NCBI GenBank assembly: GCA_020137815.1
Contig: CM035356.1
Coordinates: 5,952,001-6,016,000, forward strand
Reading direction: 5' to 3'
DNA length: 64,000 nt
Source of the DNA: Hormiphora californensis
Lineage: Eukaryota > Animalia > Ctenophora
Below the pieces are notes generated by a model. It had not been told where the DNA came from and searched no databases. It saw nothing but the letters and a program-made list of their open reading frames with translations. This document shows, piece by piece, positions 25,900-61,371 of the stretch. Both the position numbers and the translations under genes were made by a program. Position 1 is the stretch's first letter. Each line of letters opens with the position of its first letter.

Positions 25900-28800
25900 C
25901 TACTCATTTTCATCAAATGGTGTGGTAATGTAGTCGTCCCTGTACCCTGAGATATCTGGTGATACGAGTACTGAACCTTCGGGCAGGTCACCAGTGGGAA
26001 CTGTGTCGTCCTTTCCATAGATCTGAGAGAAGACAGTAATAAAAGAGAAATTGGTCCGTGCCAACTTGCTGAGTAACCCCTTACACAACAAGTGCAGTGC
26101 CAACGGCAGTTCAGTGAGTGCTGGCACAAAGTTTGGGGAACAAGCATTGTACCAAACAAAGTTTTTCGTGACGTATCTCACTGCAAAGTTATCGACCCAC
26201 AACCAGGAACCGACAGAAACAAGTAAACAACCAATCAGAACGCGTTGTTTTGGTCACGTGACTGGTTATCAGCCAATCAGGGACCAGTATTTCCTGATTC
26301 GGTTGGTTCCTGCCCACAAAGCTGTGCTATGTACCTGTGATGATATTTTCCTCATTTGATCTCCCATTAGGTAGGTCCGGTAGAAGATTAGGAAATCATC
26401 GGCTGTAACATCGGCAAGAGCATCAACCATCTTCTTCTTGCGGGCAAAATCGCGAGGGGAATTGAATATCTCAGAGTTGAGTTCCAAACTAAAATCTGTA
26501 GGAATATGATTCTGTGTGAGAATCGAAAACTTGGCTGTTAGGTGCAGAAAAGGCAAATGCTACACAAATGCTGTTAGGTGAAATGGAAAATGCTAAAATG
26601 CAGTTCATGACTACATACTAATTATGAATTATACTAATTGGTTAAATTAACCTGGTTAATAACCAATTAGTTAGTTAATTAAAGTTTGTACCTTTGAGAC
26701 TGATTTGTTTTTGTTCTATCTGTTGCTGCATGGCTACTTTTAGACCTTCCCAGTTCGCCTTGCCCTCACTTGTAGAGTTGAGGTCATGGAAACTCGTAAA
26801 CTGTAGCTCCAATAAGTTATCGTGCCTAGGATGATTTGGTTCTATGAAATGTTTAAGGGTACGCTAACCAAAATTTTTTTTCGAGTGCAGGGAAATCTCT
26901 CACCGTAGGGTTGTAGGCCATGCCAAGGAGACCTCAAATATGCAATTTGAGCTCTCAAGTCGAATTCATATTTTTGCTACAGCTGCTTGAAAAATGAACC
27001 GAAAATAAGTTTTTGGCATCTTAAAAATACATTTGTAAAGATAGGATCATAAAAATTCGTGGATTTGAAGAGGACAAAGAGGTGAATAGCCACAAAATTT
27101 TTTTTTGAAATCCGAGCTGATTTCCGGTCCTGAGATGGATTTCTTTTTTTTCACTTTAACGCCCTATTTGGCAAAGTTCCGAAAACATGTGAAAGCTGTA
27201 AATTGGTCAAAAGTTGCGTCTAACGATTCTCTATATGGCCATAAATTTTGGGCGCGTCCTTATTTGAGATAAGCTGTACAGAGTTTTTTTTGTGAAAGCC
27301 ATCATTTCAGAAATAAATTAATTCTCTATATCTCAAAAACGGCTGATCGTAGAGACCTGAGACTATGCTTAAACGATTCAGAAGGTCCGATTTTGGGGGG
27401 GTCTTCTGAGAGACATTTTGCTCCTACTTCAACCGTTTTTGCTGTAATTGCGAAAAACAAAAACCCATCTTCGCCATAGTGAATTTTTTGTGATTTTGTT
27501 TTTGGTGATTATAGGGACCCATATGGACCAAATAGTGAAGGAATTAGCTTGTTACACATTTTTCCATAGTTTCGGTCCTTTCTTAGCTAAAATTCCCTAA
27601 TTACAGAATATTGGAGTTTAGCTTTTGCCCTTTTCATAGAATTTGTTTTTCGCAATTACAGCAAAAACGGTTGAAGTAGGAGCAAAATGTCTCTCAGAAG
27701 ACCCCCCCAAAATCGGACCTTCTGAATCGTTTAAGCATAGTCTCAGGTCTCTACGGTCAGCTGTTTTTGAGATACAGGGAATTTATTTATTTCTGAAATG
27801 ACGGCTTTCACAAAAAAAACTCTGTACAGCTTATCTCAAATAAGGACGCGCCCAAAATTTATGGCCATATAGAGAATCGTTAGACGCAACTTTTGACCAA
27901 TTTACAGCTTTCACATGTTTTCGGAACTTTGCCAAATAGGGCGTTAAAGTGAAAAAAAAGAAATCCATCTCAGGACCGGAAATCAGCTCGGATTTCAAAA
28001 AATTTTTTTGTGGCTATTCACCTCTTTGTCCTCTTCAAATCCACGAATTTTTATGATCCTATCTTTACAAATGTATTTTTAAGATGCCAAAAACTTATTT
28101 TCGGTTCATTTTTCAAGCAGCTGTAGCAAAAATATGAATTCGACTTGAGAGCTCAAATTGCATATTTGAGGTCTCCTTGGCATGGCCTACAACCCTACGG
28201 TGAGAGATTTCCCTGCACTCGAAAAAAAATTTTGGTTAGCGTACCCTTAATATGGAACAATTATTATGGAATTAGTTGATGTGAGAGGACATTAAAAAAT
28301 AGATTGAAAAATTCACACTCACTCTTCAGCAATGACCTCCGCTCCAAATCCAGGTCTAGATCCCTGAACCAGAATATTGAACGTGACGATGTCCTTATAT
28401 TCCTCGTCGAAGCAACTCGCTACGTAACCCAATTGTTGCTGAAACAGAGGTTTACTGAAATTGGTGGCATAAACTGTATGCATGTGTTAATTACAGTACC
28501 ACAATTATCGACTGTGGTCGCCAGACAAATCATGTCAAGCTTGTACCCTTTGTCCAAGCACATTTTTTGAATGAATTGTTGGGGTGATAATATTTGAGGA
28601 TTCACCAACCATGATTGAATACATTCTATAAACCGATTAGGTGGATCCTAGCTAACACCAACTTTCCTTGCTCGACCCTGTTTGAACAAAACGGGAACAA
28701 AACAAACACCAACCTGATTTAGTACCATTATATCGTTGTCTATCTTGTTAACCAACCTGAGTTCTAAGATAGTTAAAGCACGGTTCTCGCATCATAAGAC

Positions 28801-31800
28801 CAAGAAGCCGGGTCAGCACGTATCGGGTGTAGGGTTTCCGTCCCTTGAACAGATCTCCATTACCCTTCATAGGTCCGATCTGGGGGGGGGGGATATTTAG
28901 TGAGTAAAAATTTGAATTTTCAGTTTTTTACTATGGTTACCAAAACATATGGTTACTACTTAGGTGGTTACTATGGTTACCTAATTAGGTGGTTACTATG
29001 GTTACCTGGAAGGTGGTTACAACTGCCGAGTTAGGTTCATCCTTGTTGAGGACCTTCTGCCTTATCACAAGGGTCTTCTCAGCTGGCAACTTCAAGGCGG
29101 GGAATACGAAATCCTCCAACCTGTCTTCCTTTACCACGGAGGCACTTCCACCTGTAGGAATTAGGGGTAACCATGGTAACTTGTGGGATCTGTTAAGGGT
29201 AACCATGGCAACTTGTGGGAGCTGTTAGGGGTAACCATGGTAACTTGTGGGATCTGTTAGGGGTAACCATGGTAACTTGTGGGATCTGTTAGGGGTAACC
29301 ATGGTAACTTGCGGGATCTGTTAGGGGTAACCATGGTAACTTGTGGGATCTGTTAGGGGTAACCATGGTAACTTGTGGGATCTGTTAGGGGTAACCATGG
29401 TAACTTGTGGGATCTGTTAGGCGTAACCATGGTAACTTGTGGGATCTGTTAGGGGTAACCATGGTAACTTGTGGGATCTGTTAGGGGTAACTATGGTAAC
29501 TTGTGGGATCTGTTAGGCGTAACCATGGTAACTTGTGGGATCTGTTAGGGGTAACCATGGTAACTTGTGGGATCTGTTAGGGGTAACCATGGTAACTTGT
29601 GGGATCTGTTAGGGGTAACCATGGTAACTTGTGGGATCTGTTAGGGGTAACCATGGTAACTTGTGGGATCTGTTAGGGGTAACCATGGTAATTTGTAGGA
29701 TCTGTTAGGGGTAACTATGGTAACTTGTGGGATCTGTTAGGGGTAACCATGGTAACTTGTGGGATCTGTTAGGCGTAACCATGGTAACTTGTGGGATCTG
29801 TTGGGGTAACCATGGTAACTTGTGGGATCTGCTAGGGGTAACCATGGTAACTTGTGAAAGTGACTGGGATGTGGTAACCATGGTAACTGGGGAGAAGGGG
29901 AACTAGTTACCATATGAAACCGTGGTGAGGTCATTAATAGAACATACCGGTGACAAGTTTAGTTTTCACTATCTCTGCGTACTCCACTGTTTGATCCTTA
30001 TTGACATTTCCAATGGCCGAACAATCAACAGATATCTCCTGAACAAATTCAATTTTTTAATCAAAATATTCTCCCTTTTTAGGCTCAAAATTTACAACAT
30101 TAACACGCGTGAACGATCAGTGTTCAAACAGTTCAAATAATTTTTAGTTGACTCTCTAAAATCTATTTTCGCGGGGAATGGTATCCCTGATCTCTAAGGT
30201 TTACCTCTAGGAAGTTATCCCTAAGCTCCTTTACTCCTTCCTGTGTCAAGCCGTCTATCATATCGAGGGCATCGCTGAACTCAAAGAAGTATTTGTCCTG
30301 CAAAATCCTGCATGGGAGAGAAAGAGTGAGTTAGTGAACACTACTAGGCCGCTGATAGGTGTGTTTTAGTTGCACTCAGCACTGTTACCATGGTAACCTA
30401 TCTGCAATATATGTTACCATGGTAACCTAGCTGCACTATGTTACCATGGTTATAGGTTACCTAGCCGTACTATGTTACCATGGTAACCTAGCTGCACTAT
30501 GTTACCATGGTTACCTAGCCGTACTATGTTACCATGGTTACCTAGCCGTACTATGTTACCATGGTTACCTAGCTGCACTATGTTACCATGGTTACCTAGC
30601 CACACTATTTTACCATGGTAACCTAGCCACACTATGTTACCATGGTTACCTAGCCGTACTATGTTACCATGGTAACCTAGCTACAAACTATGTTACCATG
30701 GTTACCTAGCTGCACTATGTTACCATGGTAACCTAGCTGCACTATGTTACCATGGTTACCTAGCTACAAACTATGTTACCATGGTTACCTAGCCGCACTA
30801 TGTTACCTTGTTGCCCTCATAGAGAGGTCAGCGGGGGAGCTATTCTGGACATTTAGATATCTCTTTCTCAGGGGTTCCCGTATTGTAGCATTGAAGAAGG
30901 ATTCCTCCATAGAAAAACTCATATCAAACAGAGATCCCATAGAGGTCTTTATCACATTCTTCACCTGTCGAGAGATAAGTATTTAAGTTCTAACCCTTAT
31001 TTTACAATCATGGTCAACTGTCAAGTGGGGGTAAAGTTAAAATATTTCTATTTTCTGTCCCACCTCACTGATATACCTAGGTGAGTGGCGACAAAGTAAG
31101 CAAACCCCGCTGGCAAGGAAACAACAATATTTTCTTTAGAATCATCGGATGGTGAATAATAAGGAGACGGAATTATCCGATATTAATTAATTGATTAATT
31201 AATTACCTTTTCGGAGTGAGAGAATCCTCCTATCGCAATGTGCCAAACCGTCTTAAAGTTAAAGAAAATTTCATACTCCACAGTGACAGCCGGATAGAGG
31301 AGGGCAGCTGTTTCTAGTACAAACATTTCTATGGAGAACAGGTAGATATTAGTTTGGGGCGAGTGGATTTCCAAAATCCCATTTTTCCTTTTTGTAACTC
31401 CTTACTCAACAACATTTTCCTGTTGTTATTGCATTGCAGCAGTAGACCAGCTTTCTCATATACATATATATGTATATATATATTTAGAGCAAAAACTAAT
31501 TGAAATTAGTTCGCCAGAAAGGTGGCCCATTTTGAACTTACTCCTTCATTTCCGTCACCTTTGAGTTGAGACTTCAAAGACATTGAGGTATCCTTAAACT
31601 TTTCCGCCTTCAACTCAAAGGTGACGGAAATGAAGGAGTAAGTTCAAAATGGGCCACCTTTCTGGCGAACTAATTTCAATTAGTTTTTGCTCTAAATTTG
31701 TACTCATTTTTGGTCGTTTGAGGTCATTTATGACCTCAAACAACTAAGCTATTTGTCAACTAAAGTGTTCAAATGTAATTCAAATGTACCTGGGTTGTAG

Positions 31801-34800
31801 GAAACTGATTTGACGAAATTTTCAAAATTCGACGTCGTTTTGACGTCGTGACGTCACACGTGACGTCACGACGACGTAACAAATTATGACAGACTATTCG
31901 GCCAATAAAGCACTAAACTTGTGAAAAGTTTTAGAGGCCATGGTAGTTAAGAACTGAAGTTATTGCACGAAATGTGAGTTTTTATGTGGATTTTCACATC
32001 AAATTTTTGAGTTCTGACGCGTTTTAAGGTCTGAAAATGACAAGTCAGAAAAATTTGCGATATAGCATCTGAAAGTTCAGACAATTTCCCACTAACGATT
32101 TTGCGTCAAATCAGGAATTGGAAAATGTCTTGAGGGTACTAGAGGCGTTTGAAAATATTTGGTCTGAGATTTTTCAATGACGTCACTTTGTGACGTCATT
32201 ACGCCCGTCATAGTGGACATTTTCACTTGAAACCTTAACTAATGCATGCCCCGAACGATTTCCTAACGGATAAAACTTGGTTCAAGTCTCTAGCTAGTAT
32301 GGTTCAGGCTACAAGTGTTACACAGTGAAGCGTCTATAGCTATATATATATATATATCTATCTATCGCCACACTGAATTTTCTGTTTTGGGGGTGGTGTC
32401 ATAACTTGCGACCGGAATGAGCTAGCTACTTGAAATTTTTACCGTCAGTAGAGGTCTATGTGAAGCTTCTTAGTACCAAATTTCAGCCTCCTAGCTCATC
32501 CGGTTCCGGAGTTAGGAGGGGTCGAAAAGTGCCAAAATGGGCTAAAACTTCAAAATTGTTATATCTACGCTGTTGGCAAGCGGGCCCACTTTTTCGGGAA
32601 AAGTTTTTGGGGGGATGGGATGGGGCCACCTTTGCGCTTGCCAGCGCAGTGATATGTATACATGAGCAGGGGGTATCATGGCGCTAACAACTAGTGATAT
32701 ATATATATATATATATATCGTCCACTATAATAGATAACATCCCCCCCACCCGATTCTTACTTGATAGCATCTCAGAGAGAAGTTCATCCTTTTGAGTTGG
32801 GGTGTTTTGTTTGGGGATAATTTGACAGTTTAGATACATTTTGGGCTGGCTGAACTCCTTGTCCTGGAACCACCATATTGTCATATCTGGAATATCAGGG
32901 GGTGATTAATTATAAATTAGCACAATCAGGGTGACGACCTACCCAGTGGTAAGCCCTAACGACCTACTGTTTGGTTGCCATAGCAACAATTGTGAATTTC
33001 AGTAACTAAGGACTATAATTACCTAACGTGTTGTTAACCTCCACCGGAAGATCATTGCCCTCATACGTCAGGAGCCGGAAATCATCGGGGATAAAATCGT
33101 TAGCATCGGGGAGGTGAAGTTCATCCTCAGTACCGATTTCCTGCCAGTTCTTGATATCTGCTTCTTTGATGGCCACATTGGCGTACGGGGTGCTGTACCA
33201 CTCTTCTACCTAAGAGTAGAGTTGTTGAGTAAGGGCCATAAGGGGCGGGGAGGACGGTAATTGGGGGTGAGATGGGGTTTTAAGAAGTTGGATCTTTTTT
33301 ACTGGGATGGTAGGGGAAAGGGTTTTGCACGGAAAATCGGAAATTGGGATCCGACTCCCCAATTACCGGCCAATCAATTACTAATAACCAATCAAATAGC
33401 AATTACCTTATCGAGAGTAGGTCCATATTGGTTGGGGCTCTCCAGACTAAACTTCAGGGAGCTGATATACATGTTCATGTTTTGAGGAGTGATGAAACTC
33501 ATTATCTCCTCCTCTAAGGTCCTGTTGAAGTGTCTCCGAGAGGGAGGGTTCAGGTAATCTCGGGGATCGTCAACCCTCGCCATACGAGATGATATCAAAC
33601 TAGCATAATCCGCTGCACTCTCCTTCTCCTTGAATTTGAACATGATATTATCGATATCTTTGTTTTCCTGCCATCTGTTTTCATTCACACCCTCGTCCTT
33701 GATACGCTTTATGTACTTGAACAAGGCATCCACGATGACATTGGGATCCCTCAAACCTAATGGAAGTCGGGGTAATAACTTGTTGTTTACTTGAGTGTGC
33801 CCCCTCTTGAGTGCAAAAAGGGGTGTGTGCGATAGAATCAAGAGAAAAGGATAGGGGAACACCATGCCAAGACATATACCTACCAACTAAACTAAGATTA
33901 AAACATTAAACAATTTTATAAGATTTTCATATATCTTGAACTCCAAAAGAGTTAGTTCTTCAAATACCTTCGTCGGTAAGGCCAAAATTGATATCAATAA
34001 GGATGAAGTTCTTTGCTTCCACATTAATTGACGCCATCAGCAATGTTATGTATCCCCGAGTTGAGAGATATTGGTAGAGGGATCCCTTACCCTCGTGGCC
34101 CAGGAAATACGTGACGTAATTCATATTCGGGTACTGAAGAAATGGAAAAAATTGATTTCAAGGGATGGATAAAGGTTCCCCATGTCGTATACCACGTGTG
34201 GATCGAGAGAATGAGAGTTAGACAGAGACAGTAGACCACCTAGCTACCAAGGCAAAATATTGGTTACAAAATAACCCCTCTTCCCGAACTTCGCGCTCTG
34301 ACAAGGGAGGGGTAACTTCGTTACCAAGGTAAAATAAGGGTTATCGTAAAGTGTTATGATCGTGTGATAGTGAAAAGTGGCTCACTGAACACCCAGTGCT
34401 TACATTGGCAATGTTGATGGGGAAGAGAAGTTTCAGGGTGTCAGTGTCCGTCTTGGGATGATAGTAGACTCGTCTGTTGATATACCTCTTGTCACCGGCA
34501 GGGAAGGGCAATACGTTGAACTCTGTAGTGGTAAATATCACCGTTACTATTATAATCAATATACTCAAAGGTCGTGTTTTAAGAGAGGCATGGTTGGTTA
34601 ACTCCATGAGAGAAATATTTACACAAAAGTTTTGGTCCTTTTCAAATTTAGATTGAATTTGGAAACGACTAGATTATTTTGTGCAAGTATTTCACTGACG
34701 ATGTTATGACGTTAAACATCTGTTAAAACATGGTCATGGCCCATGGCCGCAGATCAATTTATCGATTGTATTTCGACAGTTACAAGTACCACGTAAATCA

Positions 34801-35388
34801 ATAATCACGATAACTGTAATGACCATGCATCTCAATTTAATTTCATTATTTTTCATCTAAACAGGTTACAACACGTAAATTTTAGAAACTCTAGACCTCG
34901 GATAAAGCATCCGACACGCACCTAACAAATTACAAACATGTTTATTCTCCCACACATGGGGTACACCTTGTCCTTACCCTTGTGGAGAGACAAGGCAGTG
35001 GTATAACACCTGTCCCAAGTACTGCACTCCTACCTAATAATTTGTAACACCTGTATTACCTGGTTTAGGTTTGTCTTTGTTGGGGATGGCGGTGAAGATC
35101 TCCTCAGCCCATCCTTGTAAGGTGTCCAGTGTTTCATTTCCCACTATCGCTACCGTTATCTGTGAGGGAGAGTTGGATCAAAACCAGATCGCTGCTCACC
35201 CAAAAAGTTGATTTCATAATAATTTGAGCTCTATAACCGCCTTTCCTTGCTCGACCCTGTTTCACCGGTTTGAACAAAACAATAACCGCCCCCTTACCAA
35301 GTTAGCGGAGTAATATTTATCGAAAAACTCCCATAGCCGTTCCTGGATATCTGTTCTGTTGAGTGTCGAGATGCTGCCAGTGGAAAAT
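25900..35388 (-). CDS. M16A insulinase/nardilysin-like peptidase: 17 constant 3' exons (~804 aa)
   Basis: Exons 35388-35298, 35159-35060, 34522-34404, 34133-33968, 33756-33407, 33209-33023, 32886-32761, 31328-31207, 30964-30807, 30307-30205, 30038-29948, 29151-29006, 28879-28757, 28438-28323, 26825-26692, 26495-26335, 26022-25900 are all GT-AG and phase-consistent. Motifs FSTGSISTL, YYSANL, LGHEGKGSL, EEWYSTPY, LHLPDANDFIP, EPCFNYLRTQQQLGY. The first exon opens in phase 2 and has no start codon of its own. Confidence 0.93.
26204..26312. mobile_element. hAT-like MITE (8-bp TSD), intronic
   Basis: CAGGAACC...GGTTCCTG termini. TSD CCCACAAC/CCCACAAA. Confidence 0.85.
26857..28246. mobile_element. 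Foldback element with ~605-bp inverted arms, TTAA TSD (Kolobok-like)
   Basis: Arms 26857-27461 and 27642-28246 are near-perfect reverse complements. TTAA on both sides and purine (GG) termini. No ORF. Confidence 0.9.
29161..29855. repeat. 32-bp minisatellite (intronic)
   Basis: Unit GGGGTAACCATGGTAACTTGTGGGATCTGTTA. Confidence 0.97.
30383..30806. repeat. 27-bp minisatellite (intronic)
   Basis: Unit CTATGTTACCATGGTWACCTAGCYGYA. Confidence 0.95.
31482..31697. repeat. Inverted repeat, ~88-bp arms with ~40-bp spacer
   Basis: ATTTAGAGCAAAAACTAATTG...GAGTTGA pairs with TCAACTC...TTTTTGCTCTAAAT. It sits in a cluster of TA-flanked repeat fragments to ~32716. Confidence 0.85.
32974..32987. promoter_or_regulatory. 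Canonical RFX X-box (intronic)
   Basis: GTTGCCATAGCAAC matches GTNRCCNNRGYAAC. Function is unverified. Confidence 0.4.
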
Positions 35389-35669
35389 CTGGGCGGAAGA
35401 GAAGATGGGGGTTAGGGAAACCAATAATCAAAAAGGCTACAGCTGGTAGGATGTGTTAATAGTGAAAAATATGAAAACCAAAGTTGATAAATTTGATCTC
35501 GGGAAAATTCTTTCGCGACTTCTCGCCTGATTTTTAGTAATTTCAACGTCCCCAATTTACCGGGTCCGGTAAAACGGGGTTCGACTGTACGCAATATTTA
35601 ATTGATCCAAATTTTCTTTAGATTTCATCCTATGGATAAGTAACAAACGAACAAACTGACTCAACTAAC

Positions 35670-36730
35670 TTAGGAAAGAATTCATCATTTGCTGGAAGCA
35701 TGATCATAGTCCGGTCGAAATTAACTGGTGTCTGAATCTCCTCCCGTAGGAATCCCTCAAGATCCTCCGGAGCGGACACCTTACCGTACCCAAAAAAGTG
35801 ATTAAAAAGGACCAAAACCCTACGTAACTGCTCGTGGGATATTGAAATGTCTATGGTCGTTGTCTCCGGCTTAACTTTAAGGGAATAAGTGCCCCCGTGA
35901 TTATAAATGTGCTTAAAAAACTGTCTACTGCGTCTGAAGAAGCTCTCATGGGGGAGCTGGTCAAAAAGAAGTGGTACCGTACCGGCATTTCCCGTATAAA
36001 ACTCGTCAAAATAACCGAGACGAAATGTTATGGAGAGAAAGGACCGGGGAATGTTAGTTCTTCTAACAAAGGAATGCCTCATATACGTCCGGATGTGTTT
36101 GAGGACAATAAAAGTGTCATTATAGGGATCGGAACTGAACTCTGACCTGAAATCAGCTTCGTCTTGGATGAAAATTGAGACCGTTTCGGGCATCCTGCCA
36201 GGTCCTGGGACGGAGAGGAGTGCAGCAGCCAGTGCAAACAGTAAAAACACTCCCACCACACCCACACATGTCCCATTTATAGTACAACACAAACACTCCA
36301 CGTCTTTGTCACTTTTCCGAACATCCACCGATTTCTGCTGTTCAAATAGCTGCTTAGCGTCAATTAGCCGCATACCACCGGGAGGGGCCTTCATTGAGTA
36401 GGGTGATCTATTGAAACTCCCTCCTCCCCCTGTTGGTTGGTTGGTTGGTGATCTAAACAGAGGTTTTAGAGGCACACTCTCGTGCAACCCAAGAGCATCC
36501 TCGACAACCAACTCCCGGAGAATCGCATGATCATCCCTGAGAATCATGTCTGGATCACGGATAGACTTAAGGTTTTCACCCGTTCCGTGGACTTGATGGT
36601 GACGATTCTCGTCCAGCCTGCCACCCGTTATCATTCTCAGATTCTCTTCAGCCCAGCTGGGTACCGATGTTCCACCACTGCCTGTTAAAATACTGCTGCT
36701 CTTACAGCTCCAGCTGCGCTTATCTTTCAT
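35670..36730 (-). CDS. M16A variable cassette A: single exon, long tail, TM anchor, catalytically degenerate M16 N-domain
   Basis: TM CVGVVGVFLLFALAAALLSVP. SITFRLGYFDE..NAGTVPLLFD..IYNHGGTY..TTTIDISI..LFNHFF aligns by eye to the M16 N-domain but has no HXXEH. Ends FFP-AA|GTTAGT (phase 2). Confidence 0.75.
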
Positions 36731-37894
36731 TACATACCCTCACTGCCAACACCAGGCATGCGAGGGATAATGACAGTTGTGTTGATGAAGGAGTAGTGTA
36801 GTGCCAATATAAATCTTGATAAAGGAGCAGTTATCGTCAGCGTCGGTTGGTTAATCCCAATTATATCATGCACTGTCAAGTGCGGATTGCAATTGATGTT
36901 AGCTATAAGAGAAAGCAAAAACGAACTGTGAGGGGAGTTGTTTCCAGGAGCTGGTGACAACAGGTAAAGCACTTAATGATACAATTGCGGCACACGAGGA
37001 CAAGATACAACTCGCTATACGGACCGTACAGGGTGTCACGGAAAACTTTCCCCGCTGTGAGATAATTCTAAGGAAAACTCTCTCTCTCTCTTCCATTCCT
37101 GACGGTTTAAGGAAACTCTCTCATCACAACTTGTTAACAAGTGATAGAAGGGTGTGGGAGAAAAGTGTGATTGTCGGGTGAAATAGGGAAACGGAAACGC
37201 AATTACAACCTTAAAAAGCGCCGCTCTCATCCAACAAACGTTTCCCAAATACTATTACTTCTCGAAAGAGGGAGACAAATTTATTACAAGCAACCGAGTG
37301 ATGGGTATTGGTAAAACACACACACACGCGTGATCCCCTCCTACTATAGATATATCTTTACGGGGGAAGATACTTGATTAAGGATACTACCAGCCGATAG
37401 ATTAATCTCCCCTGCTATACACGAGGTTTATACGTAAACAGAGACATATATATATCATCATCACAACAGATATATAGAGACACGTATCATCATCAATAGG
37501 GAACATGAGATGATCATACGCTGGTTAATCTTCATCAACTACCAAACTTCTACCGATCCTTCTAAAGAATATAATATACTGATATTGTACTGCAGCAGCT
37601 CTGTCTCGCCGCAGCCAGGTAAGCCGCATAGCAGACATGTATAAGCCTAAGGCATGTTACGCGTGACTGCGGTTAGAAGAAGGACAATCAAAGTGAAAGG
37701 ACATATTGTTGGTTAGAAACTATGATAGAAAGAAAGAGAAGGAGAGAGAAAGAAGGCGTACAGAATCCTTATGCAAAGTAATCAGAAAAAAGGAATTGCC
37801 TCTACCGTTAACTATCATCGTACAGCACTATGCTCAGCTGGAATCTGCAGTATCATCCTTCTGAAGAACAACGGTAGGGTAGAGAGAGAGAGGT

Positions 37895-38034
<140 letters not shown>

Positions 38035-41000
38035 TAAAGGTAGAGAGAAAATGAGAGTTAGAGGGGGAAACAATTGATCACGTGATAAAGAAACCTAAAA
38101 GCTGTTGAAGGAGTCTCTCGAGTTCGTCCATTTCCTAACGAGCCTGATCACAGCTAGGGACGACCTGGTTATCATCAAGGACCTGTGTGCGGTGGGCCCT
38201 AACGAGATTCTCGTGACCTGGCGCCTGTTATCAACTCAATCACACTCCGAGACCTGCAAGGATCACTGTCTCTCTCTATCAAGAGAGTGCCTCTCTCTCT
38301 CCATCCATCCATCTCTCTCTATCTCTCCATCTCTCTCTCTATCTCTCTCTCTCTCTTCCATCTCTCTCTCCATCTATCAACTGACTCTCTTGAAGCTACT
38401 ACACAATTATATATCGACCTCTGCACGATGGTTTTCATCCAACTAACCGATCTGCACTAAACAATCCTTCACAGCTCGCACACCTCCGTTTTCAATCATT
38501 TTCAAGCTCTCTCACTCGCTCTCTCAGAGGTGAGAGGGTTAATCTCTCAGCCATTCACTCTTTTCACGCAAGTATGAGAAAAAGGACCCCAGGTCAGGAA
38601 AATCTGATTGAATATAATGCGAACAAGCTTGCATAGGTTCGCTCTATTAAATAGTGCATCGGTATAGCCTGCTTTAAGAGCCTAAGGGACCAACGTGAGC
38701 GTGTGAAATGAACACATTCATTAGAAGCATTATACAGCATCCAGAGGAGATGCGAAAAGTAACACCATAAAGAGCTCCTTCTAGTCTCACAACGCAACAA
38801 TTTTCGTCTCAATCAACCAAACCAAATCACACCTGAGCAGATTCAATGGCCAATAGTTGAATATACATAAGGCCAGAATGGAATGCTGGAAGGAGACATC
38901 AAAAGGAATGAATTTTCCAAGAAAAACCGCGGAACAAAGAAACAGTAGGCGACAATGAAGAACGAATTGAAGCTCCTACTACAGCAGCAGCTCCAGCTCG
39001 TGGCCCCGGCCACAGCTTAGAAGCAGGTCACCTACAATTATTGAAGTTGGTGTGCGTGAGTTAGTGTCTACGTCAGGTTGAAAACTACACAGCTTGGTGT
39101 AGAGAAAAACTGGGAGATGGAGAAGGAGGCATAAAAGACTAATTGATTACACCTTGCATGTAGATGGTCATGTAAAAGTTGGTACAGTCAAATTCGTTAC
39201 TAGATATCTCTGGTATAACTAAGATGTAGATGTACCTAGATTGTGCTTTGTTTCTACACCAGGGGTTTGATTATGGTTAGGACAGTGAATACTGAATAGT
39301 GACCATGTCCAGAGATTCGCATGAAATTAATTCAGTCATGTTATATATAATACAAAGTATGTATAATATGAAAACACTTTGATTAAAGCACACGTCCAGT
39401 GGACCCTAGCTGGTTAAGGCATAATTTCCATTGGTCAGGGACAACTCAGCAATCAAGAGATTTCCCTTGGATGCATCGTACTTAACTTAATGAAAGGTTT
39501 GGTGAAGGAGCAGATATTTTAATGAAGAAGCATATTGTGGTTTAATAAGGGGGCTGCAACATTAATAAAAAAACCTGCAATTCCGTCAGAGTATAATCAA
39601 ATCACAACCCACTGAGCTTACAATGCAGTGGGGAAGTTGAGAAGATACAAGGGAGGAAATAGAGGAAACTCTTTTGAACTCTATGTCAAAGAGACAGAAG
39701 CCAGCAAAATTAAAACCTCATCAAGCATTTCTACATATATTATGTCATCGCAACACCCAATTAATCGAACAAAAGCCAAACTTCATACGACCAAGTCTGA
39801 GCCTAGAAACTAGCAACTGTCAACTGAACATGAATAGTTACAAAGTCTGGAACAAATCACCCCTCTATAACAGTAGCTATCTCCTTCTCTCTACGTACGT
39901 CTTTTTCTCTCCCCGTTACGCATTTCTCAGCTCTAGCTTTATGATCTTATCCTTCCTCCTAACTATCCTCCTAACTATCCAGCTATCCTCCTAACTATCC
40001 AACAATACAAAATGATGCAAATTGCAAATGATCATTAAATCTTCGAACAGCTATTATAGCTCCGATCAAGATAGTGTGTTTGTGTGTGTGTATGAATTGT
40101 CACAAAACACATCGTGTTCCTGTAATTATCAAGCGAGGGGGCATTAGCCAACAGAGACTACGGAGCTTCTGTCGATCTACATCTCTCTTTCTCAGTTTTT
40201 TTTTCCTCCTCTCTCTCTCTCTAGCATACCCTTTTTTAAATATTCCTTCCTCCTCTCTCTTTTTAAAATCTCATAATATCTCTATGTTTTTTCTCAGACG
40301 TATCTTCTTATGTCACCCTTTTACAAAAGACATCCTAGACATAAGTGAAGAATAGGGTGAAACTGATCGACAATAATCAGCAACGATCATCTCCACATCT
40401 CTGCGATAAAACATACCAATAAACAAATAACGTGTTTTTTACTTAGTCCCTTCCCCAAAAACAAAACAGTGTTGAATGAGTTTTTCAAAAAGGGGGCCCA
40501 CTTTGAAAGCGCTCTCTCGCACCGCAATTGAGTACTTGGTTCATTAAAAATTTTGGTGAGAAAGGAAAAAACCTTGTTTTATTTGGGAGAAAGGGGAAGC
40601 CGAGTGAGTCGGGTAGAAACCCTTCCCCGGTTATATAGTGCAACAGGGCTGTTTTTTTTGTTCTGGGGGTGAATAACTGCCCAAACCCGTCGTGGGGGAG
40701 AAAGAGAAAGAGAGGGAGAAGGGGAGCCGGTTTGGGTGGCTGGAAAATTTAATGGGGGAAATCAGCTAAAAAAAAACAAATAAAAATACTGATCCTCCCG
40801 GCAAGAGATCGTACCTAAATAGCATTTAAAAAAAGGAAAATGATTCCACAAGCTTGTGGGGCAAAATTTTTGAGTTTTTTAGATGCATCTATCACACCTT
40901 TTTTTCAAAATATCTTTCTCTCTGGGTGCTCGTGTCTCATTTGTAAGAGTTTTAATGGGGATTTTCCCCGCCCCTTTTTCAAAGACATCATTTTAATAAA

Positions 41001-44000: not shown

Positions 44001-46277
44001 GGGGGAAAAAAATCAATGGCGGGGCGTAGTGGCGGGCGGGGCCGGCTGTTTAAAAAGTTATTGTATGTTTTTCTCATCTCCCCCAGGGAAAAAACCGGGA
44101 ACGTGCGGTTGGGGGGCCCCCCGAGGAAAAAACTCTTTCTCAAGGGGGAGAAAAGAGAGAGACGGCACATTTTAACGTTATACATTAAAAATTGAGGTTG
44201 TAGGCAAAATTTGGGGCCCAATCCAAAGTCTCTACTCAAAATTTCCCAACCCCGGGGTTTAAAGTATTAAACCCAAAAGGGTTTACAAAATTCTTTTTAG
44301 AGTCTCCGGTGGTTTCTCAGGGGACCTAGAGCCCCAACTTTTGACACCCCATGGTTTTACCCCAAGTTGAAAAAAAATAGTTTGGTTTTTTTTTGAAACA
44401 ACAACATTTCAAGGGGTTTATTACACCAAAATGAAAACAGTTTTGTGAAAAATAACCCTGTTTAGGGTCGTGTCGAGGCTCCAAACAGATGTGACAAAAA
44501 CTGGAACAATTGGGAGAGGTCGATGTAGTTATCGACTCTACTATATTATCTTTGATACACCACCACATTTTAATCATCACTTCTTTGATCTTATAGCTTA
44601 AAATATACTTTACGGCGCAAATTACTGGGGCTATTATTTTCAAACAAAAGATTGCAACACAAATTCACAGAACACAATTTCTGTTTGAAGGAGAGAAGGA
44701 GAAGAGGAGGAGAAAAGAGAGAAAAAGGAAGAAAAATTTTAAAAACGGGTATTTAAACTTGATTGATCTGTTACATATCATGTGTAACTCGTCACGGCTA
44801 GGAATTTTCTGTTATCCCGAGTAGGGCTAAAAATATAATACACTTGTTCATCGAGAGAAATGAATTTAAAAATGAAGAAAATTCCGGAAAGATTCTTTCT
44901 ATCGATTGTTTTGATCAAACTATAACGGGTGCGGAGAACTGTCGGCATGAGGCAAATGCTGTGACCATTTGTTACTCAACAAGTGACCATTTGTTACTCA
45001 ACAAGTGACCATGGTTCTTGCGCACTGATCTGTGTGCAGAAGAAATGAAAAGGGGGTAAAGGGCCAATCCTCTGGGAAAAATCAGAGCATGGGGGGTCAA
45101 CGGGTGAAAACTTTTAAAGTAGTATTGAAGTAGTATGACCATGTTACAGCAAACAATTACAAATTAAATTAAAATTAGTATGACCGTTTGTAGCGGGAAA
45201 ACAAACCCCATTTTTAGGGGCGGGTTGCAACACAAGGGTTTTTGTATTTTAAAACGTGTAAAACTTCAATCATGTACGAAAAAAAAGAGAGAAAAGAAGG
45301 GGAAAAGGAGAGAGAGAGATAGAAGAGGGGGGGAAAAGGAGAGAGAGAGAAAGAAAAAAAGAAAAGGGTTTATTAGGGTTTAAGAGAACAAATAAAACTC
45401 ATGTTTGGGGAGGAGAGAGAGAAAGGAGGGAAAACTAATAATAAGAGGAAGAGAAAAAAGGGGGAGAAAGGAGAAAGAAAGAGAGAGAAGTGAAGGTCGT
45501 TAGAAAATGCCAATCAATAAATAGAAATTGAGAGATTGCGAGTACATGATCAACATAATAGATTGGACCTTGCATATTCAGATAGCTACCAATTCACATA
45601 ACTAAACAGAGATTCAAGATTCAACATAGCTATACCAATTCACCTAACTACCAAATAAACAGAGATTCAAGATTCAAGGATTAGAAATGTCTGTCACTAA
45701 ACAGCTATAGCGGCTGAGTAATATGACTGAGTAATATACACATGCACACTTGTGTGCTAAACATGATCAAACCTGCCGATGATCGATCATCATCATTCTC
45801 CTATTGCCCTATCTTTTTTCTCTCTCCCTCTCTTTTTTCTCTCCCTCTCTTTCTTCTCTCCCTCCCTTTCTTGATTCTATGACTCCTTCTTGACTCTATG
45901 TCTCTCTTTTTATGCCTACCTCCCTTAACGTCTCCACACCATATTCTACATAGCTCATTTCCATACTCGGATCGAGCTGGATAATTTCTCTCTCCCCAGA
46001 GATCCTCCCGGTATAGTGATTGCCATTACCCAATGGTGCCCCCTAGCCTTCACAACAACTCCACGAACTCTCTCTCTCTCTCTCTGGATCCAGAGATTTC
46101 CATCCCTTCGATATTTTCTCCCTTCTCCAATATATTCTGAAAGTAGTGATCGCTTGCAGCTGTCACATATATATTATTGAGACAAACAGGCATGCTTTAT
46201 TCATGCATCGTATTATAATACTTGGGATGGATGAATGGGTGATTCACAAACCTGGCGGGAGGGAGAGAGGGAGGAGA

Positions 46278-46646: not shown

Positions 46647-47293
46647 CCATGGTAGACTCCATCCGGGTTAGAAAGTTGTCTGGTGAGTTGGTGAATACTC
46701 CATATATCGATAGTTTTTCCCTTGTTATACTCACTCTCCACCGCCCCCATCTCCCTTTTAATCGCATCTGCCGTCATTAGGGGGGCAACGAAGAACTGCG
46801 CCAAGACATCCATAGTACCCTTCAAGTTGTTATTCACATAGGCAAAGTAGTTGGTGACCTCGTAATCTGTATAAGCGGATATTCCCCCTCCTGCCTTGTT
46901 CACCACCTCATCAGCATAGTTCATCGCGGGAAACTTCTCTGTGCCCATGAAGAGGAGGTGTTCGAGGAAGTGGGCAGTGCCTGCTGGGAACCCTCCCGCC
47001 CGATCACCCAGGTGACCCACACCAACGTTAACCGCAACAGCGTGCTGGGTTGCCATGGCGTCCTGAACGAGCGTCATCCGGAGGCTGTTGTTTTGGAGTG
47101 TGATCGCTCTGTACGCTCGGTTATCGTTATCAGATGAGATAATACTGCCCGTCGGCGGGCTGGAAGATCTTAGAACCCGGAGGTAGATAAAGACTGTGAC
47201 GGTGCAGAGGACTAACAGGACTGCAATCAGGGTGATCAGCCCTATCTTTCTACGGGTCGTGGCTCTGTCCGCGAGCGGCATGTATTTTGTCAT
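46647..47293 (-). CDS. M16A variable cassette B: single exon, TM anchor, intact catalytic domain
   Basis: TM IGLITLIAVLLVLCTVTVFIYL; GTAHFLEHLLFMGTEKFP; REMGAVESE. Ends VYH-GG|GTAAGT (phase 2). Spliced to the constant exons it gives ~1020 aa. Confidence 0.92.
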
Positions 47294-49586: not shown

Positions 49587-50500
49587 AGACAGGGAGACAG
49601 AGAGGGAGAAAGAGAGAAGTGGCAGAGAAGTGACATAGACAGAGAAAAGGATGCTGAGATTGTGATGGCTCGGATGAAAATATTTCAAAAAGTAACTCTA
49701 CAGTTAAATGCTAAAGGGTTTAAAAATATCAGCAATTCTAGGAGATTGTAAAACTCTTTTACCATTTGGCTAGCTACTTAGCCCTCAAATTGTGTACAAG
49801 AGGGAATTGATTCACCTGCAGCAGTATATCACTCGGTGCGTCGTTCAAAGGCTTCTCTAGATGATGAAATGAGACATATATTCATATTGATATTTTGGAC
49901 CCACGAAGTCACTGCATAGACATGATGGGATTGGGTCAACAAGCAATGGAGAAGCTACTGCGTGGGTAATTAAATGTTCGTAAGGTGCAAAAAGAATTAA
50001 TGCTATTTCGCATCTAGAGATATGAGTGCACGCAAAAGCTTTAATTCCGAGGTCCATGGACGCGGGGTTTTGAGATAGGATGAGGAACGGGGGGGGGAGT
50101 GAAAGGAGAGGGAAAGGGGGAAGAGAGGGGAAGAGGAGAGAGGGGAGGAGGAGAAGGGGGGAGAGAGAAGAGAGAGGGAGCAAGGAGGGGGAGAGGAGGG
50201 GGGGGGGAAGAGGGAAATGGGGGGGAAAAAGGGGGAGGAGCGGGGGGGGCGAGAGAGAGAAAGAGGAGGGGGGAAAAGAGCCCAAAAGGGGGGGGGGGGG
50301 GGGGGGAGAGGAGGAAGGGTGTTTGGGTTGTGGAAAAAATTGGGGGTTGATATAGGGTGCAAGGGTTCAAGCTTAAAAAGCCTGCTCCGCCATTCGGGGA
50401 TTTTTTTATTTAAAACCTCTCCAGCAATTGGGGGATGAACAAGTTCAAAGGAAAACAGACGACGATGTACAAAGTTCAAGAAACAACCACTAAAATGACA

Positions 50501-52620: not shown

Positions 52621-54766
52621 CTGTGTAATGGGTGTCGGGGGCTGGAGCTAACTTCAATAATTGCCTGGGAAGCCCAACTATTCTGGTTTACATCTTTTCC
52701 CCATTCACTTTCAATTGCGTGAATCTCTCTGAAATTACACTGGCTGTTATAGAGCTGCAATTGGCCTAGTGGTTTACTGCTAAATAGTGAAAATATGGAT
52801 CGTTATAGGAGAATATGGATCGTTATAGGACAGATCATGTACATTCTATGAACACAAAGGTATACAGTCGGACCCCGATTTACCGGGATGCTCAGTGGTT
52901 TCGCACGGTAAAATGGTAAATTGGGGTTTCAGTTAATCGGGGTCCGACTATAGTTCCCTGAAATGTAGGTCCTTACTTTTCAATGGCCTCCATATCGATG
53001 AGGGGATCCACAAAGAACCTGGAGAGGACCCATGTTGTCTCATTGAGCTTTGAATTCTTCGTCTCAAAGAAGTAGTTTGTGTCCTCCTTGTCGGTAAAGG
53101 CATTAGCCATACCGTTATCTAAAGAAGGATGATTATTTAGCATCTCGGGAACATCGGTGAATCGAGAGTTTGTTTGTTTGTTTGCTAAGACTGGAACTAA
53201 GAGGAACCTGGGAAGTGGGATACTAGATTCTCCCCCTCATTTTGGTCTTTCTTGCTTACAGTTTTCTTTACTTACTGTTTCTGATGAGGATATCATAGTA
53301 ATTTTGAACTGGATACATTCGAGAACCCATAAACAGGAGATGTTCAAGAAAATGCGCCAAACCGTTGTACCTGAAAATGATGTAAGATCTTTAGTTAGCC
53401 ACAAAAGATTCAAGTTTTACTCGATATATGCAATAAAAACGGATTTTCAATAGTATGTAGGGGTTAGAAATGTTTGATTTCACCACTATTCTCACTAAAC
53501 TGCCGTTATTTCACTAACCCGACAGGTTCATTGAAGCTGCCCGCATGAACATTGACTCCACATGCTGATTTAACGGCGTCTTTATCACTAACAAGTGTAA
53601 ACCGGATACCCGATGGGAGTGAGAAGGCCCTGTATAACCTGGCATCACTTTCTGACTTTATAATACGACTTCCCTGAGGAAATATAAGTTGATTATTGTT
53701 AGGGCCATCCAGCCTCCGTGCAAAAGGTAGTATGGAAAATCCATCCAATGCCATGTGGAATAGAAGTTCAGGAATTGATGAAATTCAAGCAAATTATAGC
53801 CTTTCCCTTGAAGTATTTCAAATAAAACACTCGATCAATATCCCACCAGATCAACATCAGTATCGATCTTTACATCTAGATCTTTATCCAGATCTTTATA
53901 TCTAGATCACTTACAGCACGGTGATTGAAGTAGAAAGCTGCGATGGTAACCCCGACAACAATAAACACAACCAGAATTATTGGTATCATGTATTTCCGGG
54001 TGGGTGGTTGCCGTTTCCACCGGTAATAGGTAAAAAGGGCTGTTTGGTAGAAGGGTGGTGGCGCTGAGACATCCTCCTCTAGTCCATGATACTCAACAGT
54101 CGCCTGGAAACAGAGAGAAATCTAAAGAAAGTATAATTTGAAGTTGAAAAACAAAATAAACTCAGGTTTAACATTGTTAAAGTGAGAGTGGACCGAATCA
54201 GAATCAGACAAGTTTGTTGTAGGTAGTAGAGATTAGCTTTCTGAGCATTTTGCGTTTTTGCCGCTCAAAATCGACCCACCCATCACTGAGATATTTTTGT
54301 TATGTTGGGAGAACTCCTGTTTAATCAGTATGTATAAAACAGAAAAGAAACAATCGTGGTGTTTTACTAACACATTCTGAATATAAGCAGTGAGGTTGAC
54401 ATGTCCATGCACAGAAGCAGGGCAATGCAAGCCAGCATATTCAAAATTTAAAGAATGTGTTAGTAAAACACAAGGATTGTTTCTATCCTGTTTGATAAAT
54501 ATTGATCCAGCAGGAATTCTCCCAACATAACAAAGATATCTCAGTGATGGGTGGGTCGATTTTGAGCGGCAAAAACGCAAAATGCTCAGAAAGCTAATCT
54601 CTACTACCTACAACAATTTTATCCGATTCTGATTCGGTCCACTCTCACTTTAAGTAACGGCTGAGTTTGGACGCACGTCTCTGAATCGGGGTGACGTGCA
54701 CATATCTCAAATGTTTACCTCAATATTATCGTCTATCTCAAAAGTTTCCTTTCCATCTTCTGACAT
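52621..54766 (-). CDS. M16A variable cassette C: six exons, TM anchor, intact catalytic domain
   Basis: Exons 54766-54719, 54103-53915, 53673-53519, 53370-53276, 53118-52977, 52728-52621 are phase-consistent. TM MIPIILVVFIVVGVTIAAFYF; GLAHFLEHLLFMGSRMYP; NAFTDKEDTNYFF; KEIHAIESE. Ends HPLH-AG|GTTAGT (phase 2). Gives ~1050 aa with the constant exons. Confidence 0.9.
54181..54649. mobile_element. TTAA-flanked MITE with ~140-bp TIRs (Kolobok-like), intronic
   Basis: AGTGAGAGTGGACCGAATCAG... / ...CTGATTCGGTCCACTCTCACT, with TTAA on both sides. Confidence 0.85.
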
Positions 54767-56790: not shown

Positions 56791-56883
<93 letters not shown>

Positions 56884-57948: not shown

Positions 57949-60900
57949 CCGTTGTAGGGAGATTCAGGGTTGGCTGAGCTATAAATAATCTGGTTCCGTG
58001 TCCGACTATTCTTCCCCTTGTTTCTATTATACTCACTATTAACCGCAATAAGAGCAGTTTCCAGCCTGTTCTCAGACAACAAGGGACTCGCTGTGGGAGG
58101 GGGGGGTTAACAAGGGTCTCACTGTGGGAGGGAGGGGGTTAACAGAGGATCTCCTGTGGGAGGAGGGGGTTAACAGAGGACCTTGTCATTGGGAGGGAGG
58201 GGGGTAAAAGGACTCACTGAGGGAGGAAGGGGTTAACAGGGACTCGCTGTGGGAGGAGGGGTTAACAAGGGGACCTGAGGGGGGGGTTAACAGAGGACTC
58301 ACTGTAGGGAGGGGGTTTAACAAGGGACTCCCTGTGGGAGGGAGGGGGTTAATAGAGGACTCACTGAGGGAGGAAGGGGGTTAACAAGGGACTCGCTGTG
58401 GGAGGGAGGGGGTTAACAGAGGACCCACTGAGGGAGGGGGTTAACAGAGGACTCCCTGTGGGAGGGAGGGGGTTAACAAGGGACTCACTGGTGGAGGGGG
58501 GTTAACAAGGGACTCACTGTGGGAGGGAGGGGGTTAACAAGGACTCCTGTGTGGGAGGGAGGGTTAACAAGGGACTCACTGTGGGAGGGAGGGGTTAACA
58601 AGGGACTCACTGTGGGAGGAGGGGGTTAACAGAGGACTCGCTGTGGGAGGGAGGGGGTTAACAGAGGACTCACTGTGGGAGGGGGGTTAACAGAGGACTC
58701 GCGGGGGAGGGAGGGGTTAACAGGGACTCGCTTGGGAGGAGGGGGTTAAAAGAGGACTCGCGTGGGAGGGAGGGGGTTAACAGAGGACGCCTGTGGGGAG
58801 GGGGTTAACAAGGGACTCGCTGTGGGAGGGAGGGGGTTAACAGAGGACTCACTGTGGGAGGGAGGGGGTTAACAGAGGACTCGCTGTGGGAGGGAGGGGG
58901 TTAACAGAGGACGCACTTTGGGGGAGGGGTTAACAAGGACTCGCTGTGGGAGAGAGGGGTTAACAGAGGACTCGCTGTGGGAGGGAGGGGTTGACGAGGC
59001 CTCGCTGTGGGAGGGAGGGGTTACAAGGACTCGCTGCTGTGGGAGGAGGGGGTTAACAGAGGACTCGCTGTGGGAGGGAGGGGGGGGTTACAGAGGACTC
59101 GCTGTGGGAGGGGAGGGGGTTAACAGAGGACTCGCTGTGGGAGGGAGGGGGTTAACAAGGGACTCGCTGAGGGAGGGAGGGGGTTAACAGAGGACTCACT
59201 GTGGGAGGGAGGGGGTTTACAGAGGACTCACTGTGGGAGGAGGGGGTTAACAGAGGACTCGCTGTGGGAGGGAGGGGGTTAACAGAGGACTCACTGTGGG
59301 AGGGAGGGGGTTAACAAGGGACTCGCTGTGGGAGGGAGGGGGTTAACAGAGGACTCGCTGTGGGAGGGAGGGGGTTAACAGAGGACTCGCTGTGGGAGGG
59401 AGGGGTTAACAGAGGACTCCTGTGGGAGGGAGGGTTACAGGGACTCACTTGTGGGGGGAGGGGTTAACAAGGACTCGCTGTGGGAGGGAGGGGGTTAACA
59501 GAGGACTCACTGTGGGAGGGAGGGGTTAACAGAGGACTCGCTGTGGGAGGGAGGGGGTTAACAGAGGACTCGCTGTGGGAGGGAGGGGTTAAACAGGGAC
59601 TCCTGTGGGAGGGAGGGGGTTAACAAAGGGACTCACGTGGAAGGGAGGGTTTAACAGAGGACTCCTGTGGAGGGAGGGGGTTAACAAAGGACTCGCTGTG
59701 GAGGGAGGGGTTAACAGAGGACTCGCTGTGGGGGGAGGGGTTAAAAAGGAACTCGCTGTGGGAGGGAGGGGTTAACAGAGGACTCGCTGTGGGAGGAGGG
59801 GTTCAATAGAGGTACTCGCTGTGGAAGGAGGGGGTTACAAGGACTCCTGTGGAGGGGGGGGTTAACAGAGGACTCAGAGGGAGGGAGGGAGGGGTTGCAG
59901 ATTTAACTGGGACAAAAGTAACAAAAATATCAGGGTTGGGTTCTACTAAGGGGTAACTAAATAAGTTGGTTAATGAATTATTAAATAAATGAAGTTGAAT
60001 ACCATTAGGGTAAACCGGGGCAAAATGGTTACTTGTTTACTTAATATCGGTTTTCTCACTCATTTAAAAAAAGAGACAACTGGAAAAACTTATATAGGAT
60101 TAAAGTTTCACTTATTTTTAATCTTTCAAATAAGATAATTTCAACTATAGGGAACCAGTCATGTACTTAACTAAATAACTAATTGAAAATTTTGGTCGGA
60201 AATTTGGTACCGGGGCATTCGAGCACAACCATAGAGAGTGCTTTTATTTCGTCACGTGGGAGTCCGTGAACGTCCTCACAACACCAGACAGAAGATTCCC
60301 GCTGGGTGTTGTTAGAGGTGGGGGCACTTTCGAACAATTAATCTACCGCAATCTACACGCTGGTCGTTTTCTGCCTCGAATTGCCCCGGTACTCACCGTG
60401 ATCACGTGGTCAAAACTGTACATCATTGCCCGGGAGTTAACCAAATTGCCCCGTGTGTGTAAAAAACCAATTGCCCATGTTTCGAATTGCCCCGTTTTCG
60501 AAATTCCGATTACCCCGTATCTTTAATTTACCAAAGAATTTGGAATGAAAACATGCTAATTTCAAATATTTTTATACCATCTGAAAGCTGATATTATTAG
60601 CTTTCAGCTGGTTTTTTCAATCGGAAATTGACCAACTTACCTCATCTAGAGCCATTTAGTGTTAACGGCATGCTCGAACGAGCAGTTTCTTCTGGAGATA
60701 GATACGGTCATTATGATACTTAAACTAGGTGAGAGACGGCATACTATGGTTCGAATTGCCCCAGTTGTTTCGAATTGCCCCGGTTTACCCTAACTTACAT
60801 ATAAAGCTGGAGAGCATCTTGGCAGCACGAACCCAGGCATAAGTTGGTACCTGAGGAGAGAAGATTGATTAGATCCACTTGTTATAGCAAGGGGCAGCGT

Positions 60901-61371
60901 GATACCAATGGGGGTATTATAATAGTACTCGGAATACTGGCGGGATACTTAGGGTTGAGTAAGTGATATTTTAACTGACCATAATAAAATATTCTGGCTA
61001 GGGTCCAGCCACCTAAAGTTATCAACTCAAGCCCTCGAGTTATAATGCTCAACATCCTAATATCCGAAGTCCAATAATTTTAAATACCGGCCAAGGAGAT
61101 AATGTTAGGAATTTGCCTACTGCGAAGAAGGACCGACCAAATACTGAGAGAAATTCCCTAATATAATTGGAATTGTTATGATCTAACCCTCCTTTATACG
61201 GGCGTGGCGAAGAGGGTTAGAAGGTCAAAAATTGGTGTTACAACACATTCACCCCCCCCCCTGCAGACAAACCTACCGTGAAGTAGTAGTAGGTGTAAGT
61301 GAATCCGGTGCGCATCCTCCTCCCCCGCTTCCCCGCTTCGACACATACTTATCAGCGTCAGTCAGATGGAC
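57949..61371 (-). CDS. M16A variable cassette D (partial; 5' part in low-quality sequence)
   Basis: Exon 60850-60799 (VPTYAWVRAAKMLSSFI) joins 58090-57949 (SSPLLSENRLETALIAVNSEY...ANPESPYN-GG|GTACGT, phase 2). Exon 61371-61277 (ADKYVSKRG..TGFTYTYYYFT) has an apparent frameshift. Confidence 0.75.
58083..59895. repeat. ~32-bp G-rich minisatellite containing the acceptor of the last cassette D exon
   Basis: Unit TTAACAGAGGACTCGCTGTGGGAGGGAGGGGG. The minus strand reads CCCTCCCTCCCACAG|CGAGTCC. Confidence 0.95.
60008..60790. mobile_element. Non-autonomous TIR element (TA flanks)
   Basis: GGGTAAACCGGGGCAA ... TTGCCCCGGTTTACCC, with internal subterminal TTCGAATTGCCCC repeats. Confidence 0.8.

Follow-up and report, generated by a model that had tools for sequence, protein, structure and literature searches.

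The 64-kb window analysed here (64,000 nucleotides of the ctenophore Hormiphora californensis; all positions are those of this window) carries on its minus strand a locus which is very probably built of four paralogous M16A peptidase N-terminal segments (heads A, B, C and D), arranged in tandem, and of one shared body resembling that of IDE. The heads are likely spliced singly to this body and the products are predicted to be type II membrane proteins. Read along the minus strand, the cassettes stand in the order D, C, B, A and are followed by the constant region. Each cassette ends with a phase-2 GT donor (A 35670, AA/gttagt; B 46647, GG/gtaagt; C 52621, AG/gttagt; D 57949, GG/gtacgt, the slash marking the exon border), and the sole phase-2 acceptor, at 35388 (ag/A-TTT-TCC), matches the phase of all four. 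A sequence-only reading of the window had placed the donors and the acceptor at these coordinates and at the same homologous position; the coordinates and phase 2 were all verified.

The constant region consists of 17 exons between 35388 and 25900, every intron is of the GT-AG type, and the 804 amino acids (aa) encoded contain zero internal stops. Joining of the exons gave predicted products of 354+804=1158 aa for A, 216+804=1020 aa for B and 16+230+804=1050 aa for C, which reproduced the lengths proposed earlier (about 1158, 1020 and 1050 aa). No second copy of the constant exons could be found within the whole window by tblastn of the body or by blastn of the constant complementary DNA, the only stray blastn match being 30 nt long (E 0.45); the earlier claim of one constant set, without copies between the cassettes, was confirmed by these searches. 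A profile of the B- and C-type heads, compared with 3266 six-frame pieces, matched B, five exons of C and the last exon of D (E 3e-7), the next-best match having an E value of 2.2, and B, C and D all terminate at column 218 of this profile. The number of coding exons is one in A, one in B, six in C and at least three (probably four) in D. The heads of the window are at most 39% identical to each other, 39% being the value for B and C. The features of a variable/constant locus, namely tandem paralogous 5' cassettes, a shared end phase and one constant exon set, were found together.

Four of the 18 sequencing runs were compared with positions 31000-37700. In a contig of RNA run X9 (depth 7.6) the joints 33023>32886 and 32761>31328 could be observed, and these constant exons are spliced as modelled. 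The coverage of run X9 comprised pieces of the constant exons and repeats, that of runs X15 and X8 repeats only. Run X7 contained no exon-exon joints and behaved as DNA of a relative.

Table 1. Cassettes, constant exons and minisatellites of the locus (window positions)
Feature	Position	Strand	Description
Cassette A	35670..36730	minus	one coding exon, 354 aa
Cassette B	46647..47293	minus	one coding exon, 216 aa; anchor, HFLEH, distal Glu, PF00675 (E 6e-25)
Cassette C	52621..54766	minus	six coding exons, 246 aa; hydrophobic anchor, HFLEH, distal Glu
C exons	54766-54719, 54103-53915, 53673-53519, 53370-53276, 53118-52977, 52728-52621	minus	cassette C
D last exon	57949..58090	minus	distal-Glu motif AVNSEY, phase-2 donor; profile E 3e-7, columns 172-218
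D exon	60799..60850	minus	17 codons; by position the helix before QFF; assigned by inspection
D exon	61277..61371	minus	AG/GT bounded; frame shifts inside the exon in this assembly
Putative D exon at zinc-motif position	62106..62200	minus	start approximate; frame broken
Constant exons 1-6	35388-35298, 35159-35060, 34522-34404, 34133-33968, 33756-33407, 33209-33023	minus	804-aa IDE-like body
Constant exons 7-12	32886-32761, 31328-31207, 30964-30807, 30307-30205, 30038-29948, 29151-29006	minus	IDE-like body
Constant exons 13-17	28879-28757, 28438-28323, 26825-26692, 26495-26335, 26022-25900	minus	body carries R/Y motif
Minisatellite	58078..59889		32-bp unit, ~59 copies; unit includes D last acceptor and first exon bases
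Minisatellite	29161-29856		32 bp x 22; intronic
Minisatellite	30383-30807		27 bp x 15; intronic

Heads, junction and membrane anchors

The HFLEH zinc motif was found in the B and C heads and in their orthologues, and the distal Glu (AVESEY in B, AIESEW in C) is aligned to the AVDSEH of IDE (E189). The body of the window carries the R/Y (Arg/Tyr) motif LRTQQQLGY, and the corresponding LRTxxQLGY region is present in the B and C isoforms of Bolinopsis microptera, the relative described below. The closest solved structure to the Bolinopsis C isoform was human IDE (residues 80-1015, i.e. 936 residues, E 4e-108), and the Bolinopsis isoforms gave the four-domain Pfam set PF00675, PF05193, PF16187 and PF22456. 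The B and C isoforms thus have the HXXEH, distal Glu, R/Y region and four domains of human IDE (PDB 6b70, 2wk3 and others).

According to the IDE alignment, the junction of head and body lies at approximately residue 218 of the human enzyme. The head segment thus includes HXXEH, which belongs to the base subdomain, and the distal Glu E189 of the door subdomain; the D2 exosite and the domain-4 R/Y pair are part of the shared body (PMC12731061). In the best explanation, what is swapped would be the cytoplasmic tail and anchor, HXXEH with the distal Glu, and the near wall of the catalytic cleft, and all forms would have the D2 exosite, the remaining chamber and the R/Y pair in common. For B and C we would expect enzymes that degrade peptides in the lumen or at the cell surface and that differ from each other in site of expression, sorting tail and cleft residues. 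Nardilysin has an acidic insertion in domain 1. Identity with nardilysin was rejected: the C-type head aligns to IDE without a long insertion, and the B and C heads have no acidic run.

Each of the A, B and C heads contains one hydrophobic segment of 19 residues ahead of the domain (Kyte-Doolittle values 2.7-2.9), and no such anchor segment could be detected in the Bolinopsis body (maximum 1.13). Since the heads carry one hydrophobic segment each and the body carries none, type II anchoring is predicted for the A, B and C products. The net charge on the N-terminal side of the anchor is +4 in B and +5 in C. The membrane anchoring claimed earlier for the products of the locus is predicted for A, B and C; the anchor and start of D could not be found in this error-rich assembly.

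In the A head, which consists of a long N-terminal tail, a Cys cluster, the hydrophobic anchor and a degenerate M16 domain, HXXEH and the distal Glu are absent, as they are in all 7 aligned homologues (33-51% identity). A is likely a pseudo-catalytic head, judging from these residues, and its isoform would be a non-cleaving peptide binder or modulator. The zinc ligands are kept in B and C, and the proposal that one catalytic head is picked fails for A, which lacks them. Descent of A from an M16 domain is supported weakly by several tests. In hhalign the A head is in register with the B heads (E 0.0024, probability 12%); in the ESM Atlas its top clusters carry PF00675 (0.93); and in a Foldseek search with a model made from A-type sequences only (predicted local distance difference test, pLDDT, 46) 33 of the 34 matches listed have the M16 fold (best E 0.008), the top one among them being a bc1 core chain, followed by IDE. 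The A head gave no Pfam match and its profile no relevant sequence match in the PDB, and in a wide VIA-align search with the same model the matches were scattered (Z up to 5.4), with no M16 protein among the 50 listed, a result to which no weight can be given because of the low confidence of the model. Single-sequence AlphaFold of the Bolinopsis A isoform reached a pLDDT of only 31. The position and phase of A, and its joining to the body in Bolinopsis, also point to M16 descent.

D is the least secure of the four heads. Its last exon aligns to the B, C and other catalytic heads with z values of 7-13. The region 62106..62200 contains pieces resembling the surroundings of the zinc motif, in two frames, ahead of a GT donor, and D, which had been ended at 61371 before, appears to continue upstream to about 62200. 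Four DNA runs were compared with 59950-62240; runs X1 and X2 are from one sample, possibly the source of the window, and run X5 is from another. All three disagree with the window at six positions between 61315 and 61330, their contigs over the D exon at 61277-61371 carry 10-29 gap letters, and a contig of run X2 over 62051-62216 has 11 gap letters relative to the window. Because of these disagreements the frame breaks of D are likely consensus errors, and D itself is probably a fourth functional head obscured by them.

Several observations were made on the sequence around these exons. Near 61400-62200, 735 bases of the window are missing from the short-read contigs of run X1 and 538 from those of run X5, and the regions ~40000-45500, 50000-50400 and 61500-64000 look like low-quality long-read consensus. 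The minisatellite array of D supplies many out-of-frame decoy acceptors. Each of the three intronic minisatellites borders on the end of an exon, and its unit is similar to the splice-site flank beside it.

The locus in other ctenophores

A search with one constant exon yielded one protein among 96 candidates, ACHWQZ_G002997 of Mnemiopsis, in which the body comes immediately after a C-type head, with FSTG again at the junction. With its body as query, 7 proteins were obtained at E 1e-60 among 7990 candidates, and three of these were isoform clusters of LOC134818889 of Bolinopsis microptera, the orthologous locus, which has A-, B- and C-type models on one body and bears the RefSeq label 'uncharacterized protein'. 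Seven isoform models were retrieved (isoforms X1, X2 and X5-X9, numbers unrelated to those of the sequencing runs; X3 and X4 fall outside the clusters read). From FSTG onward their bodies are letter-identical save for one 2-residue variant, and the heads are of type A in X1/X2, of type C in X5/X6 and, shortened, in X9, and of type B in X7/X8. The heads of the window pair one-to-one with these types: A is 49% identical to the X1 head, B 57% to the X7 head and C 42% to the X5 head and to that of Mnemiopsis G002997, all above the 39% between B and C of the window. As to the bodies, that of the window shares 59% identity with the one of Bolinopsis and 60% with the one of Mnemiopsis. In a tree of 13 catalytic heads, from which the A heads were left out, window C grouped with the C heads of Bolinopsis and Mnemiopsis (support 99/96, on a long branch); window B joined the B heads (support 89/90).

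The two-residue difference in each of the pairs X1/X2, X5/X6 and X7/X8 sits at the boundary of exons 11 and 12 of the window. Isoform X9 (P0002) begins inside the C head and lacks the anchor.

The variable/constant reading proposed earlier is supported by the Bolinopsis models, in which heads of types A, B and C stand on one and the same body, and also by single-exon open reading frames (ORFs) of types A and B from other assemblies, whose matches end at the same column. Seven A-type representatives were found among 1.84 billion; the homology ends at the donor column in 7/7, with a stop there in 3. Six B-type matches were found among 147 candidates, with a stop straight after the donor Gly in 4/6, which a phase-2 GTAA donor would cause. 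For the A- and for the B-type ORFs near the Bolinopsis ones the longest ENA contig has 71,816 bases, and the two probably share this contig. The best reading of these data is that the layout is conserved between cydippid and lobate ctenophores.

If each head had its own body, tandem paralogues could have been collapsed or mis-assembled into one body by the assembler. Parts of the window are indeed error-rich and the short-read contigs disagree near D, but the heads are so divergent that their bodies would hardly be similar enough to merge, and the one-body pattern recurs in the independent Bolinopsis assembly; likewise, only one body-bearing Mnemiopsis protein was found in the protein searches with the body and a constant exon. 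We regard such a collapse as most improbable.

Another explanation, which we consider unlikely, would be that only C forms a true gene with the body, that A and B lie in its long intron as nested genes without a body, or as relics, and that the A and B isoforms of Bolinopsis are annotation joins. Genes nested in introns are frequent in Hormiphora, with 2357 of them in 1654 hosts (PMC8527503). The Mnemiopsis annotation has C with the body (G002997) and a stand-alone B head of 223 aa without body (G002999), and a P. bachei model, 86% identical to window B across 98% of its length, leaves the exon at the donor codon and then splices into repeat sequence. Against nested genes it can be said that the donors of A and B stand at a constant column and phase across many assemblies, that the Mnemiopsis B model reads a few codons beyond the donor position before its stop, and that A and B are joined to the body in the Bolinopsis models. 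A head-only product would, moreover, end inside domain 1 and lack the R/Y half which M16 enzymes need (PMC12731061).

The reading of four heads on one shared body has several points to its disadvantage, some of which favour nested genes. The head-to-body junction was unseen in H. californensis, as the cover of the RNA runs excludes 35388, and B is kept apart from the body in the annotations of both Mnemiopsis and P. bachei. The Bolinopsis isoforms are computed models; RefSeq builds such variants on aligned transcripts. A body with a D-type head was not among the sequences retrieved, the seven Bolinopsis isoforms included. In this assembly the upstream D exons are out of frame with each other, and some 59 repeated copies of the last D acceptor stand ahead of it. 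The M16 homology of A is weak in each single test. As to the membrane topology, the net charge of A before the anchor is -2, i.e. not positive, and the Asn of the body sequons is kept in all five bodies in 4/7 cases against 17/43 for the other Asn, which is not clearly more; the sequons themselves are kept in 3/7, no higher than background.

Further body-bearing sequences were met with. In a metagenome scan (12 loci from 288 candidates) the sole close relative was L001 (61-3129), which resembles a spliced, leader-bearing transcript, so that the scan yielded no further genomic arrangement for comparison. Together with the proteins P0005 and P0021 it shows a further head type with HYLEH and an anchor (L001 and P0005 are 71% identical); the bodies are full-length and 50-56% identical to the other bodies. 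P0005 and P0021 are uninterrupted calls of 1032 aa on contigs of 8.9 and 22.6 kb, possibly intronless copies. This head type may or may not be the D type: the last D exon shares 16 of 44-45 residues with the L001/P0005 type versus 12-14 with B or C, a slight edge. P0006, a divergent body-like protein on short ENA contigs (36% identity to the Mnemiopsis body), suggests a second paralogue in some species.

Selection of the cassettes

In the mechanism that we propose each cassette would have its own transcription start, the terminal donor of the cassette transcribed would be spliced to 35388 and the downstream cassettes would be skipped, as in the protocadherin, UGT1 and GCNT2 clusters. At least two active IDE-like peptidases with a membrane anchor, and an inactive form beside them, would result, with a common chamber and with differences in tail, anchor and catalytic cleft. 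Separate promoters would be a somewhat likelier means of selection than a spliced leader (SL).

The same products could, however, arise without separate promoters, if RNAs, either separate or in one long precursor, were resolved by SL trans-splicing at an acceptor ahead of each cassette or if head RNA and body RNA were joined in trans, and we hold this for a possible if doubtful course. A leader was present on at least 56% of the Hormiphora Iso-Seq reads (PMC8527503); the first bases of the head and body contig L001 form a short AT-rich run with TTGAG at its end, similar to the Hormiphora leader; and the isoforms of sDscam are reported to be expanded by trans-splicing (PMC9258826). On the other hand, if an SL acceptor preceded B or A, it would be in competition for the donors of the upstream cassettes, and leaders and separate promoters may coexist.

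Much of the recognition of substrates by IDE resides in the constant part; the choice of head may therefore affect the place and time of production of the enzyme more than the peptides that it cleaves. Tentatively, ctenophores might have invented independently a protocadherin-style locus for the control of peptide signals, in which promoter choice gives each cell type its own IDE-like catalytic head at the surface or in the secretory path, and the conserved zinc-less A might act as a peptide trap or receptor, which could pair with the active isoforms via the shared body and tune the breakdown of neuropeptides.

Known systems and other features of the window

Human IDE is mostly cytosolic, whereas the A, B and C heads of the ctenophore each carry an internal hydrophobic anchor, and the ctenophore locus supplies several catalytic domains, one of them without zinc ligands. 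In a survey of M16A proteins, a signal peptide is predicted in only 1.7% of the eukaryotic members, animal M16A proteins are mostly without targeting signals, and transmembrane anchors go unreported (PMC8774118). The bc1 core proteins are non-catalytic M16 homologues likewise lacking HXXEH, but they are separate subunits, unlike the alternative head A; an M16 fold without HXXEH is described as inactive (PMC12731061).

The same arrangement of tandem paralogous 5' exons and common exons, varying the N-terminal half of an enzyme, is found in GCNT2 and in UGT1/UGT2A. GCNT2 is the closest analogue, with anchor-bearing variable exons on an enzyme; its three variable exons have a predicted transmembrane segment (PMC1885805). 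These are unrelated proteins, described as vertebrate-specific. Each of their variable segments is a single exon, with high similarity among them; the ctenophore heads, by contrast, are at most 39% identical, two of them are multi-exon and one is predicted to be inactive. Protocadherins and the chelicerate sDscam have tandem 5' cassettes, alternative promoters and constant exons; for the ctenophore locus the promoters are only inferred. The sDscam cassettes have two or four exons each (PMC4835542). Both families are adhesion molecules with dozens of cassettes, in contrast to four old, individually conserved peptidase cassettes in the ctenophore.

The variable/constant architecture is thus already known, but its use by M16 peptidases was not found in print. 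Outside subscription journals and supplements, whose gene tables could list it, no published report of this locus or of such a layout in M16 or zinc peptidases was found, in agreement with the sequence-only reading, which had known of none for M16; the Bolinopsis isoforms are public in RefSeq, yet apparently undescribed. The variable/constant clusters described are those of adhesion proteins and glycosyltransferases, in vertebrates and chelicerates. A peptidase cluster cut within the catalytic domain and conserved in cydippids and lobates would mean that such clusters also arose separately in an animal lineage that branched off early. The predicted membrane-anchored IDE-like enzymes, unusual in animals, are candidates to process or clear the peptide signals of ctenophores, and the locus offers a natural experiment on the share of M16 specificity in the head versus the common chamber. 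In Mnemiopsis and P. bachei the locus is divided or wrongly joined by the current gene models, and both the counts of its genes and its expression in single cells are therefore likely misread.

Some other features of the window were noted. The ORFs at 315-1325 (plus) and 17810-18607 (minus) look like retroelement pieces and gave no Pfam match at E 0.1. A multi-exon WD40-repeat gene lies at ~11000-15200 on the minus strand, which we take to be WDR26-like from its resemblance. An ORF piece with an NPA motif at 22327-22647 (plus) presumably belongs to an aquaporin-like context, and a C2H2 zinc-finger exon is located at 9040-9230 (plus).

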